The notes beneath the pieces are model-generated. The model ran no database searches. It was not told the DNA's origin and saw only the letters and a list, made by a program, of their open reading frames with translations. Source: Takakia lepidozioides (Eukaryota; Plantae; Bryophyta). From it: DNA of 64,000 nt. This document shows, one piece after another, positions 1 through 13,618 of the stretch (within the stretch, counting starts at the first letter, position 1; each line of letters begins with the position of its first letter). The DNA lies in the NCBI GenBank assembly GCA_030704615.1, contig CM060734.1:54374001-54438000 (forward strand). Direction: 5' to 3'. A program made the position numbers and the translations under genes.

Positions 1-303
1 GCCGCCTCTGCCAGTACCTACGACGATACTTGGAAATGCGGCGCGCATTTCCTTGTCGGAGGTCGAATGAGGAAAGCAAGTTTTCGGAAAGCAGAAAAAA
101 CATGAACCCTCCAACATACAAAAATACATGCACGTGGAAGCAAGTGAACGATATAGTAATATCTTAGTTCGAGCAAAACAGGTTACTGGTAGGCAAGACA
201 TATGTCGGACCTTTCTGTGGCCAGAGTCTGAGGTACTGGCAGCAGTACAGTTCTACTATCCGAAAAAGGATGGCGTACCATTGTATTGGAACGCAAGCCA
301 AGC

Positions 304-3300
304 TCACTGGTCCCTGGATCCATATTCAGAAGAGTGTGAACCTCCTGGGGGGCTCAACCCTGGTGCATGTATGAAGTGATGAGTTGTGGAATTACAACGG
401 AGTCTCTTTAGGTACACGTAGTACAAATGCTTGCAAGGGCAGTATGATGCCCCCTTGTTCGCCATGATCTGGAAAGTCGGTGCAATTGCAGGTGGTAATT
501 CTGAAATGGTGATGGTGTACACCTCATTGCGAACAGCTGAGCCCGCCGTGGCCATCTGATACACACGCCGAATCCTGGTGGGGGCACTTCTGTCGAGCTG
601 GATTGTACAGTTCATCCGAAGTGCATTCCCATCCTTGTCTCGTTCACTTTTGAGGGAGGTCGCCGCCTCTTCGGTTTCCCCCCAACGGTGTGTAGGATGT
701 TAGAGCTGTGTGTCCCATTGTTCTTGCTCTCACAGGGGTCGGTGGTGGAGGCTGTGGAAGCGGAAGGAAATGGTTCTGGGGACGTCATGCGCTGCACCAT
801 CCGAAAATCCTGCGGCGGGTAAGGGCGTCGGCCTCAACCTGACTCAGATCGCAGCCTGGTTCCACCGGCCCACACCGGGGGAGCCTCTGGCATTGTTTGT
901 ATGTTGTACTTGGGCTTTTCCATACACGCAAGTCATAATGTCGTGCTGCAGAACCAGAACTGGGTGGTCGCCTCCGCAAACTTTGCATGGACAAATCTTC
1001 CTGTAAAAGTAGGAGCAGGGACAGCCCCATCTGGATCCTCCTTATCATCTCTAAACAACGTTGCCGTGTATCCACACGAATTGCGGAACACCTTCCTCGA
1101 AACGACGGCTTTGTGCGAGCAATTTCTCCACTGTGATGCAGACACAGTCGTCTCCACAATGGCTTGGCCATAGGCATAACAGCGGGCGGAATGTGGGGCA
1201 AGGGAGCGGTGGGAATTTTTGCACGAAATCCCCGGTTGAAGGCGACGGCGATCTGGAATTTCTTGGGCTTCCATGCTGGAAGACACATGTGCGGCAACAT
1301 GACGGACCTCGAGGTGCTGTCCGATGTTCCTGTCGGATCTCCAGGAATCCTCTTCGCACCCGGGTTCCTCTTCAATCTCCGCCTGAAGGGCGAGTCCGGA
1401 CGTCCCCCTAGGTGTTCACCTCTGCGGTGCAGAGGCGTCCCTTTGATCTTCTCTCGCCAATGCTGTCGCCCATTTCACTGGATTCTTGGACCTCGAAGCT
1501 GTTCGTACCAACAATTCCTCCTGTCCGGCCCAAAGCCCCATTGTTGCCGCTCAGGAACTTGTAGTACGTGGCTTGCTGCATGATTGCTCTGTCGATGTCC
1601 TCCGTTGTGGCCGTCACTACGTCCACAGATGTGCGGCAGAAGATGACGCTCGCCAGGAGGAGTGGACCGATTCTGCCATATTCGTGTTCGGCATGTCCGT
1701 GTCGGAATCCAAGCACCGCTCCTAGAAGGACACAAACAATGGTGAGGGACCAATCGAAATGTCCGTAACAGAAAGACAAATGAACGAAAATGACAGCAGC
1801 CTACCTCCCGCATGTACTGTCCGAACTGTCGATACCGAAAATGCCACCACCCCAACCAGCTGTGCAATGCTCCCAGATTGGTTGTCTCCACTGCACCTGA
1901 CGTGTTCCACCAAGCCTCGATGATAGCAAACTTAACCTCCGCGTCATCAAATGTGGGTGCATCCTTCCACGCCGTACAAAGGACACGGTGTTCAGCCTGG
2001 AATGAGCTAGCAACAAATTTGGTAGTGTAGTGGGATAGACTCTGCATCCAATGGAATCCACAGGATCTCTCTTTCCCCTCCATTGGAACATTGGGGTCCT
2101 CACCGTACACACGCCGCACCGCTGCCCAGTTGGCCTGAGCGTTGTCTGCCATGAATCCCCTGAAATTGGGCTCTGGCAATCCCGCCCTTGCCATCTGCTC
2201 GTTTATGCCCTCCCACAGATGCATCTCGGACTGTGTGTCCTCCCCTTTCATCTCGCAGATTGCAATCGTCATGAGCCTCTTGGAGTGATAGTCATAAACA
2301 TGCGCACCCATAGTCACCCACTGATGGTTTGTAATTCGCTTGATGTGATCAAACATCACCCAAGCATTCGACAAGTTTCCAGTTGTCATGCGAGTGACCA
2401 AGTCGACTCCACTCCCAGGCCCACACGTCGACATTTTGAAAATGTAACAACGATCGGATTCGCTGCCTTGCCCTGGAAACCTGCTACCTTGGATGTAGTC
2501 ATATCCAGTCATTCGTTTCACCTCCAGGATTGAGTACATGTCCGACCCCCTGCCGAACTCCTGCTTGCAAGATACGATGTGATTCCGCACATTCGGACTA
2601 CAAACGTGCGAGACGGACTCCAAGAGGTCACGCATCTCGTCTTCGGTCAAGGGCTCTCGGTCGGAACCATCTTCAGACATGATTTTGCCAAGAGCAATCT
2701 TGTGGGCTGCCTTCAGCTGAATCTGCTTTGGTCTGGCTCCGGGGCTCAATTTCACCTCCTCTTTTATGATGTCGTGTGCTTCCTGCACAGCCTCACGCAT
2801 GTTGCCTCTCGCCAAGGGGTGGCAGTGGACCCCAACGTGTATGCAAGCTCTAGTCAAGTCCGGGAGCAAATGGATTACGTAATATTGCTTGGCTCTGCAC
2901 ATGGACATGCACGTCGGTGGTTCTTTGCAATGTGCACACTTGAAAGAACCCGCAGGAGCTTGGCTGGAGACAATGAATGGATGATGCGTTGTGCCAGTCC
3001 AATCCGTCTCGTTTCTCCGCCCTCCTTTGGAGAGAAAGTGGAAGCAGGTGGGATTGAGGCACCTCAGCTTCCCCGCACAGAGGACATATCGTACACGAAC
3101 ACCATCAGCAATTTTCGTGCTACTGGTCTTCGTCACACACCAGGGGTGTCCGTCATGCTTTCGATCCATGTCTGTTAACATCCCGGAGGCTTTCTTTGAC
3201 GAAGAAACAGGTGGAAACTCGAAGATGACATTGCCATCGACTTCGGGAGGCAGAAAAGTTACCTTTCTGACTGGGAATTTGGCATAGTCGAGAGCAGCCA

Positions 3301-3898
3301 GCTCGGAGCGAGAACCATCGAGGTGATGTTGTCGTAGGAGCTGCACAATGGACCGGGTTGGAGTTATGCTCGAGGGCACATGCGTAGCACCTACAGAGAC
3401 GTCCATGCCGGATTTGAACGACCGTGTGGAGGACATGGGTACCTCAATGCAATCATCTTCCTCGTCGGAAATGTCGAATACGTCCACACGAGAAGCTATG
3501 GAGGGTCTTGACGGTCCAGGTCGGGAATGATTATCGTTGCATACCTCTCTGTTGGCAGTGGCCGCCTCTCGGTTTCCGGACTCCTTTGTGGATGGTGTGG
3601 GCAGCGACTGATTCGGAAAGGGAATGGGCATTCCCACAGCTCGGTACAGGATGGTGTCTGACGGGGGAACGTGCCATTCGATTCCGCAACCTCCGTCGTT
3701 ACCTAGCACGACAATGGTCTCGTCAACCTGTCCAGGAACATCCTTCCTTTCTTCTTCCAAATAAACTGTGCCCGGTTTGAGCTTGAATTTGGAACAAAGG
3801 TAAGTTTCAGTCACTCTGCAAAGTCCTCCCTCGTTTGGGATCCAGGCTCTCCCAAGTTGCGGAGGACAGCAAACTATAGCGTAGGAATTCGGAGCCAT
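304..3898 (-). CDS. MULE transposase: GCM-like zinc DNA-binding domain, DDE core, C-terminal SWIM finger; intron ~1722-1804; several frameshifts in exon 2
   Basis: GCM-like motifs YVLCAGKLRC..C, CAHC, MCRAK and GVHCHP at ~2817-3160. MULE motifs WVMFD, GFMADNAQANWAAVRRVY and SCGFHW. After a GT-AG intron, PNTNMAESVHSSW supplies the catalytic E. SWIM is TCNCTDF (shifted frame) plus CPCKHLYYV at ~420-495. Start ATG at 3898 and the 3' end are approximate. Confidence 0.85.
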
Positions 3899-4327
3899 CG
3901 AACACCGCACGGAGTTGGCAAGTGCGAGGTTCAGTATAGCGACAGACCAAGGCTCACAGGCACCATCTAAGTGGATCTGCGGAGTCCATCGACAATTGGA
4001 AGTCGCACATTGAAGTGGAAAGTATTGTTTCAAGCTACATGCATGAAGGTGGGAGGTTTGATTCCATAGCCAGTGAGTAGGACAATGATGGCCGATTCGG
4101 CGACGAAATAACATCTCCTGACAGTTTCTCCTGAGGGTGGATCCAGCAGTATTCTCGGTGCAGACAGGAACGTTCGCACTGACAAGTGCCAGGACTGCTG
4201 GTTAAAACGGTCAGACAACCAAGTTGTGCTCATCAAGACTGGCCGCAATTGTGTTGTTTCGGAACAATGCAACCCATTGAGGTTCCAGATTTCCCGTCAC
4301 GAGTGATTCTGTCGATTGCTGGTGGAC

Positions 4328-6051
4328 GGAAATACGGCGCCGCATTTCCGTATTGCATCTTGGTCATGCAACAGAGCGACGGAAATGCGGCACCGAGTTT
4401 CCGTCCGGGGGAAACCTTTATACTCTCCAGAACGGAAATGCGGTAACGCATTTCCATCCAGCAAGCACGGTATGTGAAGGTGGAACGGAAATGCGGTACC
4501 GCATTTCCGTTCTGATTGAGATTTATGAACAACGGGAACAGAAATGCGGCACCGCATTTCCGTCCGAGTCGCACTTTTCGACATTCCAGAACGGGAATGC
4601 GGCGCCGCATTTCCATTTTGTATCTGATGCATGGAGCTGAGGGATAGAAATGCTGCAGCACATTTCCGTCCTTAAAAGACATTCATACTCTCGAGAACGG
4701 AAATGCGGTACCGCATTTTCATTCAACAAGCACGGTATGTGAAGGTGGAACGGAAATGCGGTACCGCATTTCCGTTCTGATTGAGAATTATGAACAACGG
4801 GAACAGAAATGCGGCACCGCATTTCCGTCAAAGTCGCACTTTTCGACATTCCATAAAGGAAATGCGGCGCCGCATTTCCATTTTGTATCTGATGCCTGGA
4901 GCCGAGTAAGATTCCGACAGCTTCATACAGCGCAATTCCGACCGGTTGAGACATTCACACTATCCAGAACGGAAATGCGGCACCGCATTTCCGTTCTGAC
5001 TGAAAATCGTGAACTATCTGAACTGAAATGCGGCACCGTATTTCCATCCGAGTCGCACCTACCATCATTCCAGAACGGAAATGCGGCACCGCATTTCCGT
5101 TCTGACTGAAAATCGTGAACCATCGGAACTGAAATGCGGCAACGTATTTCCATCCGAGTCGCACCTACCATCATTCCAGAACGGAAATGCGGCACCGCAT
5201 TTCCGTTCTGACTGAAAATCGTGAACCATCGGAACTGAAATGCGGCAGCGCATTTCCATCCGAGTCGCACCTCCCAACATTCCAGAACGGAATGTATTAG
5301 ATTTAAAAGGGAAATGCGGCACCGCATTTCCGTTCTGATGAAATATCCTGAAACATCGGAATTGAAATGCGGTACCGCATTTCCGTCGGAGTCCCACCAT
5401 CCGACATTCCAAAACGGAAATGCGGCACCGCATTTCCGTTTTGTATGTGAGGCATGGAGCTGTGGAACGAAAATGCGGGAAGGCATTTCCGCCAGCGGTA
5501 CCGCATTTCCATTCTGACTGAAAATCGTGCGCAACGGGTACAGAAATGCGGCACCGCATTTCCGTTCGAGTCGCACCTTCCGACATTCTCGAACGGAAAT
5601 GCGGCGCCGCATTTCCGTTTTGTATATTCGGCCTGGAGCTGTGCTACGGAAATGTGTTGCCGCATTTCCATCCATGTGAGACCTTCAACCTTTCCAGACC
5701 GGAAATGCGACACCGCATTTCTGTCCAGGTGAGACCTCTATACTTTCCCGAACGGAAATGTGGCACGGCATTTCCATTCATCAACTAACGTATGTGAAGT
5801 GGGAACGGAAATGCGGCGCCGCATTTCCCTTCTGAATCTCATACTTGGAGCTGTGGGACGGAAATGCGGCACCGTATTTCCGTTCAACAACTAAGGTATG
5901 TGAAGGTGGAACGGAAATGCGGTGCCGCATTTTCTTCCAACAAGTACGGATGTGTAGCAGAGTGATCGTACTTAACGGAAATGCGGCGCCGCATTCGCAT
6001 TCTCGCTCCAACTCATCAGACGCTGGGACGGAAATGCCTTGAAATGTGAAC
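4328..6051. repeat. Array of ~30 palindromes GGAAATGCGG-NN-CCGCATTTCC on a 53-bp period with higher-order spacer structure
   Basis: Repeat starts at 4328, 4381, 4434, 4487, 4540, 4593, 4646, 4699, 4752, 4805, 4858; 4971-5236 every 53 bp; 5310-5469; 5542-5913; 5977. The 31-bp spacers fall into about five classes that recur as 265-bp and 106-bp units. Confidence 0.97.
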
Positions 6052-6346
6052 ACGTGGAGCAACGGAATTGCTGCACATGTCGGCACTCTATCTGACTGAA
6101 GGGGCATGAGGCGGCGCGGCCTGACCGTTGGATAATGATGTTTGATTTTCGGACGGCGGGCGTACCCTCAACGATTCGAATTTCGTAATGACGCAAACTC
6201 CACGAGGAGACACTTTCGTCCAACCTTTCGAACCCAAGTGGTGCATCACCGCCGTTTCATCTACTTTTGTCGTGTCTCCTCAGTCACCCCTCTCGCGCCC
6301 TTTCCATCTGCACTCTTTGCCCCTTTTCCCTCTCTCTGTTCTTCTT

Positions 6347-9300
6347 ATGCTCGAACCTGAGAGGGGGGGAGTTCGTGCACCAGACAGGAGACCTCGTCGC
6401 AAGCTCCGGAAATTATACTTCGGACGTAGGCCAATGCCGAAGGGAGGAAGCAGATGCGTCTACAGGAGGAGATTGCCATCTCCGAGCAGCAGGCCACTCA
6501 GGCAACCCAGCCACCAGTGAGAGCTCCATGCGATCGGGCTGCGCGCAGCTGATCGAGCACCGAACCCCCCATTTTGCTTCTGTAATTCTTAGACTGAATG
6601 CTAGGAGACTTGAATGCAGAACATGTTTGCATGCCTAACAGGAAAGGTGGACGTGCTGGAGGGATCGCAGGAATCCGAAGAGCCGCAGGAAGAGTCCGAG
6701 GAGCTAGCTGCAGCACGTACACCCACCCGATCCCCGAGCGCGGGTACTCCTGCCGGGCCTAGCCCTCTGCGATTCAAAGACGCGTCTTCGAAGGGCAAGT
6801 TCAAAGTCTCAGAGATCGACTCGCGTTCTTCGATCATGGAGAATCGCCAGCAGGGGTCGGGCCCTTCTCCAGCAAAGTCGAAGAAGAAGCAGCCCGTCCC
6901 TCTACTGGCTTCTGAACCGGCTCAGGCCGATTCACCCCCCCAACGCGAATGAAGCAGCAGGGTAGAAGACAGATTCTATTGCAGCAGACACCTTCACCTG
7001 CAAGGATGAGGAAGCAGAAGGCAATCAGGGCGACGGCCGAACAATCTCCCGCAAAACCGCTTCCACGAGCTGAAGCTCAGTTCCTGGAGGATTTCCCGCC
7101 TGCAGATGTTGGGGCCGACTCTGCTGCAGCGAAGGCAATGGGATCGACCGTTGATCTCGATTTGGTACCGGAGGAGGGTGCTGCCGCTGAACGTTCGCAG
7201 GCAGACCTCACCACCGATGAGCTAGCAGGCCCGGAGGAGGCCTCTGCAGTGGCAGAATTGCCCGCACACAGGCCCCAGAGTGCAGCTCCAGTTGAGGATG
7301 CTCCACCTGCTCAGCCACTACCGGCACCTACAGACATGTCTCCGGAGGATTTCAAAAGTGCAGCGGATAAAATGTTGGAGGAGACACACAGTAGCATTGG
7401 CAGAGTTCTGGGCAGCAGGGTATTCCAGCGGACTCTTCGAATCCCACTCTGTCGCATGGTCTCCCTTCCCATCGTCAGGCAGGCCCTTCCCGGAGATGTG
7501 GATAAGCTCAAGTTCGCATTTCGAGAAGGGTACCGTCTGGGATCGGCAGCGTTTTACGTTTCCATAGAGAATGAGGACGGCGAAACCCGTGGACCCACTG
7601 CCGATGAATTGTCAACGTGGGATACCCACTGGCACACTCGCAACCACGAATTCGAGGCGACGCTGAAGGGTGATCCCGACTTCGGCCATATGTCGGGAAA
7701 AATGTTCTTTGTGTGGGACGGGAATCACCGACTTCTCGCCTGGTGGGAGTACATCAAGCAGAACCATGCCAAGCACATTGGCTGGCATTACATGGTGGAG
7801 TGTGTCATCCTCAAGGTGAAGGCGGCAGACTCCTCCCTCCTCAAGAATGCCATGGCGGACCTCAACTCGTAAGATACTCATACCCTCCCTAGCACATTCG
7901 AAATGCGGTGCCGCATTTCGGTTTCCATTCTGGTTTGATTCCGTGCTTCCGTGTACTGAACTGGAGAGTGTGCCTTGCAGGGTCACTGAGAATGCGTACG
8001 TGCATACCCACATGGCACATATGCTGTACAGGGTGAGGAAAACTGGTCTTACTGATCCGCAGATGTTTGCGGAAATGCTGGAGCCGGAGCTCATTCAGAA
8101 AGCCGTTGCAAAAACAGACCGGACATGGTATCGTCTCACTATGGATGGAATGGTGGAGGTGATATACGAAGTAAGTCGTGCTCCAATTTCCCTCTGCTCA
8201 TCCTTCCCCAATTTCCAGTAATGTTTCCACATGAATCGAATGTAACGCTTCTGCATGTTTTTGTTGGCAGTCAAACATCAAGCTGGATTTGGCCCATGCC
8301 AAACGCTTCTTCATGGAAAGTGAGGGGCAGGTCAAAACGTTGCAGTCATTGACTGAGCACTTGAAGGAAGCCGGTGTCAAGTCCAGAACCAAATACAAGT
8401 CAAAGCTTGTGAAGCTGGTGGCAATTGCAGATCCGGCACTTGGAAAGGACTTCATCCCCGAGATTGCAAAACACTATTCTCGGGCCATGCAGCCGACCAT
8501 GCAATTGGAGAAACTGCATCACCTCTCAACGGCATGTGTGGAGGCGAAAGAGAAGGTGAGGTTTCAATGCACTGAATTTCCTTCCTAGCAATAGCCACTC
8601 TCTTCCAGCCACTGACATTGGATCGGAAATGGCAGACACGGTGGCTGTCGATCTGGAATGCATCCGAGAGCATAAGGACAATGTGGTCTTTTCCACTGGA
8701 AGTTTCCGACCCTGCAGTGGATGTGTGGCTCAACCGTATGACTTGGTGGTTCCAGGTAATTCAAGGTACTTCCCCAGATTTGCTTTTCTGACATGAATTC
8801 CCTGAACTGCTACGTGACAATGCATTTGGGAATGGCAGGTAATGTCGAATGCAAAGGAGCAAGTCGTAATGCACACAAATTCGTTCGGCTTGTACGTCAA
8901 ATGGGATGGAACACAGACATTGGAAGACTACGTGACACGTTTCAGATGTGCGTACAAGGACAACCTTTTCGCCAGAGAGCTACAGACAGCAAGAAGGAGC
9001 GTGGAGTTTACACATCAGGAGGGAGCGGGGAAAGCTGCAATGCGAATTGTTTACAGGTGAAGCACAGCTGCCCTTGTATGCGAAGCCTGGTTACGAGGTT
9101 TGTCTCGGAAATGCGGCACCGCATTCGCATTTTATGTTTTCGGTGGCACTCTGCCAGTAGGTTGGTCTCAACTTTTGCTCACGCATGCTGACTGCCTTGC
9201 AGGTATATGAAATACGTGCTCCTTCAGACAGGGGCCCTGGCTCAAGAGCCCCCGTTCTTCATGGCTTGGACCGTGGCGGGCCCAAGCTGTGTCTACACAC

Positions 9301-11555
9301 CCGAGATGCAGAAACAATGGCATCCCGCGCATCTCGTTGGATGCCCGTGGTACCTGGACATGTCTGGCGGTATTGTTGACGAGTCTGAGAAAGATCTGCA
9401 CGCCTTGGCAGAAGAGAAGAGAAAGGAAAGACGTGTCCCTGCTGGGCCAAAGTCGGCAAAGGAATCTGCTGCTCTGGAAGAATCCAGAAAGGCAGCTGAG
9501 ATGGCACAAAAGACGGTGGATGCAGCTGTGCAGGCCCAACAGAAGGGGTCGAAGAAGAGGACTCGCCAGCAAGGAGCAGCTGTTGTGACACCCGCCAAAA
9601 CGAAGAAGCAGAAACAGCCTGTTCAGGAAGAGGGTGAGGAAGAGGACTCCGATGGAGACTTTGCAACCAGCCCACCCCCCAAACGCAGGCTGCCTCCCCT
9701 GTGCCCACCGTTGTCACCAGAGGCACGAGAACTGGCTCGGCAAAGAAGGCACTCTTCAACCCCCCAGGGGGGCACCCTTTCGAGCCGGTGGAAATGAAGA
9801 GGCCGAAAGTGGCTCCCGAAACTGTAGTCCAGTGTGTAAATGAGAGTTTCTTGGCGGCTTTGGATGGACGGGCAGCCAAGTTGGCATACATGAAGACCAT
9901 GGAGGGTCTGAAGGGCAGAGCACTGAAGAAGGCGACTGCCGAAGAGCCTTCCGACACCCCAGGATTTCAGAATATGGTCTCGTTCTTTGAGAGGGTGTGT
10001 GCAGACAAGGATTGTAGGAGGGGCGGAAATGCCACCGAGTGGTCTTGCGATATGATCATCTTGGATATTCCGGACGGAGAGCCTGTGGAAGGACTGCAAG
10101 CTTTGCCATCTTGGAACAGGTACTCGGAGGACTTTTGGAAGAAAGGATTCGGGCTTGCCCGCATGGTGTTGGACGACAGAGGCTGTGTGGTTGTCCTGGC
10201 GAGCAGAGGAAAAAACACTCAGACAGGAATTGCGAAGTGGACCCGCAAGAGCGCCGTCCCGATTCTGAAAAAGAAGTGGACGTGCATCAACACACTGGGC
10301 CTTCGGTCGGAAGGGAAGAAGGTGATTACGACACTGGCACTCGTCCATTCATTTGCTTGGGTGCTTTCAAATGCGGTGCCGCATTCGGTTTCTAATCGTT
10401 TTCCCCCTGTGTATGCAGACGAAGCAGTTCGATGCATACTGCTTTGTGAAGGAAAACTCCACCTTTGCTTTCCGGAAGGAGGGAGGAAAGGTTGACCCGA
10501 ACTGCGACCCACTCGATTACGACGTTCTGTTCAACAACGTTCCCAAGGAACTTCTCCCTCATAGCCTCACTTCAACGGAACCCCTGCGGTACTCACGGAC
10601 TCGGAGCCCTGCCTTCATTCAGACAATTATGGAGACATGCACAGACGTGGAGGGCACAGTGCTGGACCTCATCTGTGGGACAGGTATGCAGAATCTTGAT
10701 CTCTGCTGTTCTGCAAATTCTCGTTAGGATGTAGTTCGCAACATCTGAAGCGCCATGTGGTAATGTGTGGATGGCATTGTAACAGGTGCCTCAATGTGGG
10801 CTGGGCGGTTTTCCGACCGGCACCTCTTTGCCTACGAGGAGGATTCATCCGTGTGGGGATCCCATCTGGAGGGGCTGCAACGGAATGTGAAGGCTCCCGA
10901 CAGAGCGGAAGTCTCCTCGGATTCGTCGGAGTCCGAGGAAGACACAGTGGACATTGATGCAGAGGAGAACCCGGAATACGAGTGAGTGCAAACATTGTAA
11001 GTTTGCAAAGCCTTCTGGGTCATTTATGTCAAAGGAATTTCCCGACTGTGGTTCTCATTAGTCTCGTTGATGATTGTCATGTGCAGGATTGCAGGGTCCG
11101 GGTCGAAGCATGTAGGGCCTACACTTCCTGCCAGGAAGAATGTCCCGTTCTTTGCGAGGGCCGACTTCATGACGAGCCCGGTGAGGGACTACTCCCTTCC
11201 TAGTTATGCAGCTAAACTCGCAAATACAGCGATTAGAAGAAGTGAGAATCCCAGTAAAGTAGAGCAGATTTTGGAGAGGGCTAGGGAGGACAGAAGGATA
11301 AGGAAAGAGTTGGCAGCAGCTCAGACAGGTAGACGGGTACGAAAGTACATATGTGATTCAGCGGATGAGAGCGACGCAGACAGGGAGGAGGACGACCCAA
11401 CGGAGGTGAGATGGACAGTTCCGCAAGGGGAAGATGGGATTTTTGAAAGCCTGGCCAACGAGCAGTCCGCTGGAGATGAGAGAGGCACTGAGGGGGTGGA
11501 GGAGGAGCAGGACAGTCTAGAACAGGATGAGGATTCGGATGATTTTCAAGATTAA
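6347..11555 (+). CDS. Multi-exon gene: low-complexity N-terminus, ParB/Srx-like domain, linker, beta-class N4-cytosine/N6-adenine DNA methyltransferase fold, acidic tail
   Basis: Phase-compatible GT-AG exons ~6642-7868, 7981-8170, 8271-8555, 8636-8755, 8839-9056, 9203-10321, 10419-10683, 10786-10981, 11087-11555. ParB motif FFVWDGNHRL at ~7705-7735. MTase motif-IV-like MIILDIPDG at 10052-10078, followed by motif-I region TVLDLICGT/GASMWAGRFSDRHLFAYEED. The first exon and start are uncertain; frameshifts at ~6940 and ~9700-9795. Confidence 0.8.
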
Positions 11556-11691
11556 TAGAATTTTAATGAAGTCTCTGTAAATGTAAATTCTCTTCCAGAG
11601 TATATAAAGAAAATTCTGCCCGACATTCGTGACCCCTCTCCAGTGTGCATTCCAGCCACACAATCGCCCAAACCAGGACGCTCCCAAAATC

Positions 11692-12427
11692 AGAAATGGG
11701 ACAGGGCATTTCCAAAATTTTGGCAACTCTAAGAACCTCTTTTGGAAATGCGGCACCGCATTTCCAAAACAGGGGAGGGACTAATTTTTCCATTTCAATG
11801 TTGGCATAGTAAAAAGTAATCTGAATTGGGAATGCGGTGCCGCATTTCCAAAATTTCCTTTGTCCACACGCCAGTTTTGGCCTCTCCCGCTCATTGCATG
11901 GATGCCACCACGCTTACAGAGGTCGAACAAGGAGGTCGAACAAGGAGGCCGACATGGCGGGATTGGAAATGCGGTGCCGCATTTCCATATTGGGGATGGT
12001 GGTTGTTCGAACTGCAGACCCATCAACAAAAACTGGCACCGCATTCCATTGTAAAAAAAAAGTCGATGACGGACATGGAAATGCGGCGCCGCATTTCCAG
12101 AACGGACATCGCAATTTGTCAATTTGCAGACCCTCTCTCGGAAATGCGGTAACGCATTCCATCGCGCTGGTCGGAAATAGGTGCACTTTTCGAAGTGTTG
12201 GACGGAAATGCGGCACCGCATTCCCTTGTCCAAAAAGAAGTTTCCATTGCCAAGCTGGAAATGCGTCGCCGCATTTGCAATGCCAACCTCGTTTTCTGAT
12301 CAATTTATAGACCCGTGTTGGTATTTCGTGTACCTGGACGGAAATGATGCACCGCATTTTCTTGTCCCACATGGAAATGCGGTGCCGCATTTCGATGTCC
12401 GACATGGAAATGCGGTGCCGCATTTCG
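11692..12427. repeat. Second, irregularly spaced cluster of the same palindrome (~11 copies)
   Basis: Copies at ~11692 (degenerate), 11744, 11828, 11965, ~12027 (degenerate), 12077, 12140, 12204, 12257, 12340, 12373, 12406. Confidence 0.93.
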
Positions 12428-12943
12428 ATGTCCGACATGGCGTTACTCTGGTATATTCTTGACACATGACTCACATACCGGTTACTCTGCTTTATTCAAC
12501 CAGACAGACAAATTGTAGAAATGAGACATCAAATTGTAAACAGTGGGCCAAATCCGAGAGTTATTCAACACAATGAAACACAGTCATACAGAAGTGAGGT
12601 ACATTCCAGGGCACACTCCAGGGCACATTTAAATTTCCCCCCTACAGGATCCTGGACCGATGAAGATTGGCTGCTGCATGAATGTAGCCGTTTCAGTTTC
12701 CTACCCTGCCATGCAAATTATGGGCACTCACTGCCAGGTGGGCCGATAGCCACTGGACACGACGAAGTCCATCCCCTCTTCGATGTAAATGCGGCGCCGA
12801 ATTTCCATCCGGGGGGATGGATTTCGGTGGCAGATCTCAAACTATAACTTGTTGATGAGAAAGATGTATGGCTTCATCCACCGCTGGCGTGATGAACACG
12901 TTCCACCTCCGTCGGTGGGTACGTGTGACCCAGATGCTCCATT

Positions 12944-13618
12944 TTGGAGGCCGGACTGCTCTTCCGCTTCGTATCTTTTCCAAAATCTAAGGGCTTCGTA
13001 GCTGTCCGCAAGGTCATCGGCATCCAAGTCGTCCTCAGGTCCTCCATTGCAAGGATGCCGTGCTTCCGGAACCGGGACGACTGCCCCTTTGGAGGCATCG
13101 ATTATGCAATGTATTCGGCCACATCGGGAGACATTGTTATCTGGTACACAGATTACACAGAAGATACTGGTTCGATTGTGGAAACATTGGTGGCTTTTGA
13201 GTATATCGTAGGCCACTACGCCTTCGAGCGGGGTGACGATCTTGGTTTGAGGAGTCCGTGGCTCCTGCGCATCCTCGATTCCGATTTTCCCAGCTACGAC
13301 GGTCACCCATGCAGAAGAAGGCGCACTGCTATGCTGTTGCGGTGGAACTGCTGCCACTGGACGTGGGTGGACTCAATCGGAGAGACCTATTCTCCTCGAG
13401 GAGTGCGCTCCTCTTCTCCATTGTATGGGGACATTCGCATTGGTGTGGACGACGAAAACGTGAAGATTTCCATATTCGATGGTGGTATGATTGAAGGGCA
13501 GGACATTGTGGTGAACATCACTAGGGGCGGTACAACGGCTGCAATCGACTTTACATGGAGGAGCCCCAGGACTCATGAGCTAGTTCTGAGAGCAGTCGAA
13601 GTCCCATTGACAACGTGA
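12944..13618 (+). CDS. Putative third cargo gene of unknown function; probably has upstream exon(s) from ~12648
   Basis: 224-codon open frame with protein-like composition, followed by AATAAA at ~13702. Possible acceptor (ccctacag) at ~12648. No recognisable family. Confidence 0.4.
   Translation: MEAGLLFRFVSFPKSKGFVAVRKVIGIQVVLRSSIARMPCFRNRDDCPFGGIDYAMYSATSGDIVIWYTDYTEDTGSIVETLVAFEYIVGHYAFERGDDLGLRSPWLLRILDSDFPSYDGHPCRRRRTAMLLRWNCCHWTWVDSIGETYSPRGVRSSSPLYGDIRIGVDDENVKISIFDGGMIEGQDIVVNITRGGTTAAIDFTWRSPRTHELVLRAVEVPLTT

Follow-up and report, generated by a model that had tools for sequence, protein, structure and literature searches.

Array-type palindromes in the introns of a ParB-methyltransferase-like transposon gene of Takakia lepidozioides are candidate binding sites for the protein that it encodes

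The stretch of DNA analysed here, referred to as the window, comprises 64,000 nucleotides of the bryophyte Takakia lepidozioides (assembly GCA_030704615.1, contig CM060734.1, positions 54,374,001 to 54,438,000 of the forward strand). Most of one element lies in its first 13 kb. This is a predicted cut-and-paste transposon that contains a transposase-like gene (421..3931, minus strand), a palindrome array (array 1, 4328..5998), a cargo gene (6434..11555, plus strand) and a further array (array 2, 11692..12806). The cargo gene is predicted to encode a ParB/Srx-fold domain together with a DNA methyltransferase-like domain, and three of its nine predicted introns each hold a single copy of the array palindrome (arrays and palindrome copies have no strand). 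These intronic copies, and the case for regarding them as binding sites of the element's own protein, are the subject of this report.

A perfect 16-bp core, AATGCGG-NN-CCGCATT, was found at 7902, 9110 and 10370. The corresponding 22-bp copies occupy 7899..7920 (intron 7869-7980, codon 445; centre TG, 10-bp arms), 9107..9128 (intron 9057-9202, codon 716; centre CA) and 10367..10388 (intron 10322-10418, codon 1090; centre TG, worn outer arms), and the 22-mers differ from GGAAATGCGGNNCCGCATTTCC by 2, 2 and 5 mismatches, respectively. These placements had been proposed in an earlier reading of the window from its letters (the first-pass annotation) and were confirmed, the intron limits being GT..AG and the exons joining into one open frame. 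A core scan of 6000-11690 that allowed up to 3 mismatches returned the three intronic sites only, bearing out the further statement that the cargo exons contain no copy. The transposase-like gene (421-3931) also has zero core copies, and in 14001-64000, a control of 50 kb of non-element DNA that is mostly retrotransposon sequence, no 16-bp core with up to 2 mismatches was found. Over the whole window the GCGGNNCCGC core was counted 29 times, with 0.27 expected, and every copy lies within the element. The probability that three of three randomly placed sites would be wholly intronic is 0.0037. The gaps from array 1 through the intronic sites to array 2 measure 1922, 1208, 1260 and 1325 bp; the spacing of about 1.2 kb described in the first-pass annotation therefore holds for the last three gaps but not for the first. 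Among the 84 possible intron triples, none divides the inter-array interval more evenly than the three palindrome-bearing introns, by a test that was devised post hoc.

The intronic copies can be compared with individual array units. The 9107 copy has 25 of 26 bases in common with the last array-1 unit, at 5977, and the flanks of the 10367 copy resemble those of the 7899 copy. In 32 of 41 array copies and all three intronic ones the central CpG is no longer intact, and the arm CpGs are preserved at 75 of 82 positions in the arrays and at 6 of 6 in the introns; these counts are non-independent, the palindrome copies being related by amplification. Mismatches fall on outer rather than core positions (9/18 vs 0/42, Fisher P=3e-6), a contrast that is inflated by conversion, and we did not rely on this test because outer variants are partly inherited from array units. 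Contig joints that link 7919 to 9106 were taken to be array contigs matching two palindromes, and not deletions.

Relatives of the cargo gene provided a further comparison. From a metagenome scan, the best 80 of 124 confirmed loci formed 52 groups at 97% identity, and 50 of these were modelled (L012 and L049 were left out). In many relatives palindrome arrays adjoin the cargo gene, with arms that differ by lineage, and several share the central CGG-NN-CCG of the window motif. A matrix made from 79 array sites was applied to the gene bodies of all 50 representatives and matched 12 loci. Ten of the matches were intronic, that in L014 was exonic and that in L065 lay in inserted DNA; the null rate at the matrix score used is 0.012 matches per kb. 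Within a clade of 24 elements (quick tree) that has its own palindrome, there were 10 matches in 9,394 bp of intron vs 0 in 29,805 bp of exon. Broken down by intron position, these matches numbered 0/24 at codon 445, 0/22 at codon 509, 1/13 at codon 644 and 9/16 at codon 716. The codon-716 intron is the counterpart of window intron 9057-9202, such that nine of the 16 relatives covered there carry their own palindrome in it. When the sites were masked, the codon-716 introns fell into three groups, with no alignment between groups or with the window intron. Moreover, 12 of 15 intron regions score highest with the matrix of their own lineage, and no score above -5 is reached by the window motif in any of the 12 foreign intron regions; for L027, L040, L079 and L025, where no array was captured, the motif taken as their own was that of the clade. 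In 10 of 12 cases the arm ends of the intronic copy are the commonest array arm end of the same locus. The earlier proposal that isolated intronic copies do not arise by tandem slippage and behave like selected sites is supported by their recurrence, as lineage-own palindromes, in the introns of distant relatives. Weak matches in L065 were dropped, located as they are in inserted DNA after a broken gene, and motif F079 was not treated as an array motif because its copies lie at many different distances.

Further placements were seen in individual relatives. L019, L039 and L069, which have no codon-716 site, carry 5-9 copies after a splice donor, and a methyltransferase exon follows in L039 and L069. 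A position of these internal arrays downstream of the gene was ruled out by the methyltransferase sequence behind them (L039, L069) and the donor before them; for L019, which has no methyltransferase match, the shared donor alone fixes the position of the array. The codon-716 intron of all three keeps a worn inverted repeat with CAATG..CATTG ends, which has no match to their array motif and a near-background score. L005 has two own-motif copies after the codon-644 donor, on a contig that ends before the acceptor, and L008 has two copies in its likely first intron, as judged by eye. The L008 motif (7-343 and 1041, 1346), TTGGCGG-NN-CCGCCAA, shares GCGG-NN-CCGC with the window motif, and the two proteins are only ~40% identical, which makes L008 a natural control with a near-cognate site. 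The upstream arrays of L016, L023, L030, L042, L044, L054, L061 and L066 alternate between two palindrome types, one of ACTYTCGGCGCCGARAGT type and the other AGCT- or GAAGAAC-armed, an arrangement that may reflect two binding proteins.

Sister copies of the window element gave a weaker signal. Four runs aligned to 7835-8015 showed 11 variable positions in intron 7869-7980 and 0 in the palindrome, in the direction foreseen by the first-pass annotation, but the test is weak (P=0.079). The 7899 site, including its outer C/G pair, is unchanged in X8, X12 and the main X6 contigs; X11 gave no cover of this intron. That outer pair had been noted as a symmetric change. It is a single event and not significant: its right arm is already present in array-2 units 12373 and 12406, so that only the left C needs explaining, with a 1-in-4 chance.

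The model of the cargo gene has 1398 codons in 10 exons, separated by nine GT..AG introns (6517-6619, 7869-7980, 8171-8270, 8556-8635, 8756-8838, 9057-9202, 10322-10418, 10684-10785 and 10982-11086). The open frame was obtained with three single-base losses read as N. Because other samples' contigs have the extra bases behind 6441, 6934 and 9674, these losses are likely assembly errors. Together with one near 480, they mostly occur in short G/C runs, and the frame break near 480 splits the SWIM-like end of the transposase. The first intron and the start codon are the least certain parts of the model. Contig X9, which is RNA-like (that it is RNA is a guess), spans the joints and confirms introns 8556-8635 and 8756-8838; its splicing covers none of the three palindrome-bearing introns, which were placed by the reading frame and the introns of relatives. 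Introns are present in L001 and L007 at codons 445, 509, 644, 716, ~1090 and 1178, and many database fragments end at the codon-445 junction. Since positions 445, 716 and ~1090 are shared with L001 and L007, the introns are judged to be older than the palindrome motif.

The N-terminal part of the predicted cargo protein has a ParB/Srx-fold domain with a DGNHR motif (7345..7868, plus strand; predicted local distance difference test score of the model, pLDDT, 91.9; ESM 0.93-0.94). When the model (exon 7345-7866) was compared with known structures, the top 8 VIA-align rows all belonged to the ParB/Srx family (Z 5.5-7.8, next row 3.2), and the best match was KorB (Z 7.8, root-mean-square deviation (rmsd) 2.5, 89 aligned); Foldseek matches of the domain had E above 0.001. 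A full HMMER scan returned 487 homologs of the ParB exon at E <=0.001, a word-indexed search for longer homologs of this exon found none, and named homologs come from Riccia and Adiantum. Some 30 long homologs are from Riccia sorocarpa alone; four of that species (P0151, P0153, P0154, P0233) carry the UniRef name 'Trimethylguanosine synthase', probably a mislabel of the transposon cargo family.

The methyltransferase-like domain is of the beta-class N6A/N4C DNA type and spans three exons (9821..10981, plus strand), with motif IV (DIPD) before motif I (VLDLICGTG), the order found in the beta class. Exon 9821-10321 scored ESM 0.90-0.91 to N6_N4_Mtase clusters. The full-length Riccia homolog P0243, folded in place of the spliced window protein, matches M.MboIIa (1g60; Z 15.6, rmsd 3.5, 201 aligned), and Pfam PF01555 was detected in Riccia homolog P0153 at E 5e-5, below the curated cut-off. 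The fold is retained from liverwort to fern homologs. The window cargo exons gave no significant Pfam family, and sequence searches of the PDB returned nothing relevant. Active beta-class amino-methyltransferases have the catalytic motif [DNS]PP[YFW]. Because motif IV in this family is never of the usual DPPY type, catalysis by the predicted cargo domain is doubtful.

As for the remainder of the element, array 1 contains 30 palindrome copies with a 53-bp period and lies between two divergent genes, and array 2 consists of ~10 irregular copies (11744-12427) preceded by a worn one at 11692 and followed by a lone one at 12785. A worn palindrome copy is also present at the window start (32..52), and the element probably runs off the left edge of the window. 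The transposase-like gene (708-aa first frame; 54 homologs) encodes FDH and ADNAQA acidic motifs, CxxH and, across the frame break, a SWIM-like C-terminus, all recognised by eye; these motifs alone suggest a Mutator-like class, the protein having no Pfam match and no PDB match. Its homologs are placed divergently upstream of the cargo gene in 11 of the 28 loci that have at least 4 kb of upstream sequence. Just beyond array 2, a 221-codon open frame (12953-13615, plus strand) with no Pfam match and no match in the 80 loci is possibly a third gene of the element. Sequence of Ty3-type retrotransposons with GGCTGTG-type tandem repeats fills 14080-46000, where the observed/expected CpG ratio is 0.37-0.41 vs 0.70-0.78 in the two genes of the transposon, a difference that fits a younger or less methylated element and to which coding constraint also contributes. 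The tiny contig sets of runs X4 and X7 (2-4 million letters) cover 30 of 30 bins of the cargo gene (window 6300-11700), hinting that the family is multi-copy.

The architecture, the two folds, the shared intron positions and the agreement of intronic copies with the array motif of their lineage are shown here. Beyond these, we consider it very probable that the three intronic palindromes are selected DNA sites rather than strays, and the cargo protein is their likely binder. On balance we favour the account that joins the two, in which the palindromes would be selected binding sites for the element's own ParB-methyltransferase-like protein. Several observations weigh against it. The nine codon-716 cases all belong to one clade (18 rows, Shimodaira-Hasegawa-like approximate likelihood ratio test (SH-aLRT) 99, quick tree) and may descend from one ancestral site; most are decayed copies, and five of the intron limits were set by hand. 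No site occurs in any of 8 introns of L001 or of 8 introns of L007, two intact relatives with uncaptured arrays, and L073 and L064 have no intronic site either. The intronic site of L066 is decayed, the exonic match in L014 reaches 14.5 bits, and in L006 a 5' exon may contain three copies. The sister-copy comparison does not reach significance on the most diverged contig (P=0.079), and the 7899 site is damaged in one X6 contig of low depth. On the protein side, 18 of 19 rows have D-x-P-x as motif IV, one has N-x-P and none has [DNS]PP[YFW]. Past the N-terminal domain, to model residue 445, the match to KorB is weak (Z 7.1, rmsd 6.8), with no helix-turn-helix seen directly. Finally, the absence of copies from exons, noted in the first-pass annotation, is no evidence of function, being expected from reading-frame selection alone, and the 25/26-base identity of the 9107 copy and its flank with unit 5977 shows that copying happens.

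This last observation also suits the explanation that needs no function at all, namely that array units were copied nearby by template switching or gene conversion, that exonic copies were purged and that intronic ones simply persist. The rare flanks that intronic copies share with particular array units and with each other are what such copying would leave, repeated conversion could mimic co-evolution, and neither the exclusion from exons, the non-significant sister-copy test nor the several relatives without an intronic copy requires the sites to work. However, neither the transposase-like gene, which is equally close to array 1, nor 50 kb of other DNA holds a copy; nine of the ten single sites of the clade are at one intron position, whereas two other positions have 0/46; the site persists in introns that can no longer be aligned; and the spacing is the most even possible. 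We therefore consider purely neutral strays unlikely. A second possibility is that the transposase, not the cargo protein, binds the palindrome, as a subterminal-type repeat that aids end pairing or activates the element. DNA transposases commonly bind repeated internal motifs, and the two palindrome types within one upstream array of several relatives could serve two proteins. Yet the sites cluster around and inside the cargo gene, with none in the transposase-like gene, and a dyad of ~16 bp suits a ParB-type dimer. In addition, inverted-repeat arrays adjoin a ParB-like accessory gene in the unrelated Plavaka elements, as far as that report was covered (10.1101/2025.02.11.637652), and there is in our view little likelihood that the transposase is the binder.

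Binding by the cargo protein might alternatively be confined to autoregulation, the sites acting as distant operators for its own transcription and that of the transposase, in the manner of KorB and with no effect on host silencing. This would agree with the altered catalytic motif, with the position of array 1 between divergent genes and with the identity of the best N-terminal structural match, KorB being described in the covered parts of the source as a sliding clamp that represses at long range (PMC11790492). Operators, though, need sites near promoters rather than downstream arrays and mid-gene introns, and the methyltransferase fold has been kept from liverwort to fern homologs, which makes regulation as the sole role improbable. 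Least probable is that the intronic copies act in the pre-mRNA as RNA hairpins, for splicing control or as a source of small RNA. The 7899 copy does fold as a 10-bp stem (intron z -2.1), but in the other two palindrome-bearing introns folding is on a par with shuffled sequence (z 0.7 and -0.8). The same word also makes up intergenic arrays, and core sequence has been kept while outer pairing was lost.

Under the favoured account of binding by the cargo protein, palindromes would be seeded from array units by short copying events and purged from exons, introns being the only gene-internal DNA that tolerates them. Intronic copies would then be kept, and updated as the recognised motif drifts with the lineage, because loading of the cargo protein there would extend its coverage to a gene whose length puts it beyond the reach of the arrays alone. 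We propose that, in the manner of ParB, KorB or Noc, a dimer of the protein would form on the palindrome and spread over a short distance, loading every 1-2 kb across the 5.7 kb between arrays. The suggestion of the first-pass annotation that sites cover the whole element would accordingly be narrowed: it fits the cargo half, no site being present in the transposase-like gene (421-3931). By analogy with the VANC proteins of Arabidopsis, the protein would probably serve to protect the element from host silencing, and this is the step of which we are least sure. Protection could come from a self-mark (N4C or N6A) or, in view of the altered catalytic motif, from occupation or shielding of CpG-rich DNA.

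A broader reading is offered more tentatively, as one that is less likely than not to hold. It supposes a widespread transposon family of non-seed land plants that uses a ParB/parS-type clamp as its self-recognition device, with lineage-own palindromes in arrays and ancient introns. The clamp would reload about every kilobase along the chromatin, and the methyltransferase fold would mark or shield the element against host silencing by 5-methylcytosine. Such anti-silencing would be convergent with VANC and made from prokaryotic parts, with intronic sites changing in step with protein specificity.

The value of the system lies partly in what it makes accessible. For algal transposons, published work proposes that accessory proteins of ParB type bind and modify their own element, and gives, in its covered parts, no test of the idea. 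The window system provides an explicit target word, lineage-specific and kept in otherwise unalignable introns, which is sequence-level evidence that the sites matter, and its several protein-palindrome pairs allow a ready comparison of cognate with non-cognate combinations. The question of how short motifs enable a transposon protein to act across many kilobases thereby becomes testable. If true, the account would add a second, independently built self-recognition system to those of plant transposons and possibly a sequence-specific epigenetic tool.

Among known systems, the bacterial ParB/parS, Noc/NBS and KorB/OB clamps resemble the cargo protein in the ParB/Srx fold of the N-terminal domain, and they too use palindromic sites of similar length that are repeated over a replicon. 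Bacterial ParB clamps carry a GERR patch, whereas the window protein has DGNHR, no ParA partner was seen and the host is eukaryotic.

In mode of action, the closest parallel is VANDAL/VANC of Arabidopsis. VANC21 demethylates its own Mutator-like element and binds motifs in that element's introns, intergenic regions and terminal regions, according to the covered parts of the reports (PMC5735166, PMC10398659), so that intronic self-sites are a known principle. As in the window, a DNA transposon with an accessory gene carries short motifs, specific to the lineage, both within tandem repeats and in non-coding parts including introns, these motifs diverge between related families, a property matched here by the lineage-specific palindromes, and an effect spreads over the element, as is also proposed here. 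The VANC motifs covered are, however, 8-9-bp words (YAGTATTAY, AGTTGTMC), as opposed to a 16-22-bp palindrome with a CpG centre, and the cargo protein, a fusion of ParB and methyltransferase folds with a helical middle region that has no fold assignment, is probably not VANC-like in fold. Binding and demethylation were demonstrated for VANC, whereas the window system is known from sequence and predicted folds.

In construction, the nearest relatives are algal. In the brown alga Ectocarpus, Sola1-1_Ec32 has an accessory gene for a ParB-like protein with an N4C/N6A methyltransferase that was proposed to bind and modify its own element (PMC12477816). The two-domain architecture is the same, the size is similar (1104 aa in Sola1-1_Ec32) and the gene is likewise transcribed in the direction opposite to the transposase, but that transposase is of the Sola type; the likeness rests on the described architecture, and the report, as far as covered, gives no target motif, array or intronic site. 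Plavaka PAG2/PAG3 of Bostrychia and other red algae pair a ParB-like accessory protein with inverted-repeat tandem arrays that adjoin its gene. The Plavaka cassette also holds an N6-methylase-like gene, and homologs occur on Chondrus Mutator elements as well, but in Plavaka the fusion partner of ParB is a 2-oxoglutarate oxygenase, and the methylase, with a SET domain, is encoded separately. In its covered parts, that report's main text has no mention of 'intronic' or 'palindrom', and its Supplemental Fig. 13 could show intronic sites (10.1101/2025.02.11.637652). ParB-type helix-turn-helix fusions are also mentioned for chlorophytes and chytrids in the covered part of a review of adenine methylation (PMC4738411). 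A literature search for a land-plant report of such a system found none, in a library without most subscription papers. Taken together, the system as read here works like VANDAL/VANC and is built like the algal ParB-methyltransferase cassettes. ParB-methyltransferase cargo had already been proposed for algal transposons; new is the cross-lineage evidence that intronic sites track lineage-specific array palindromes.

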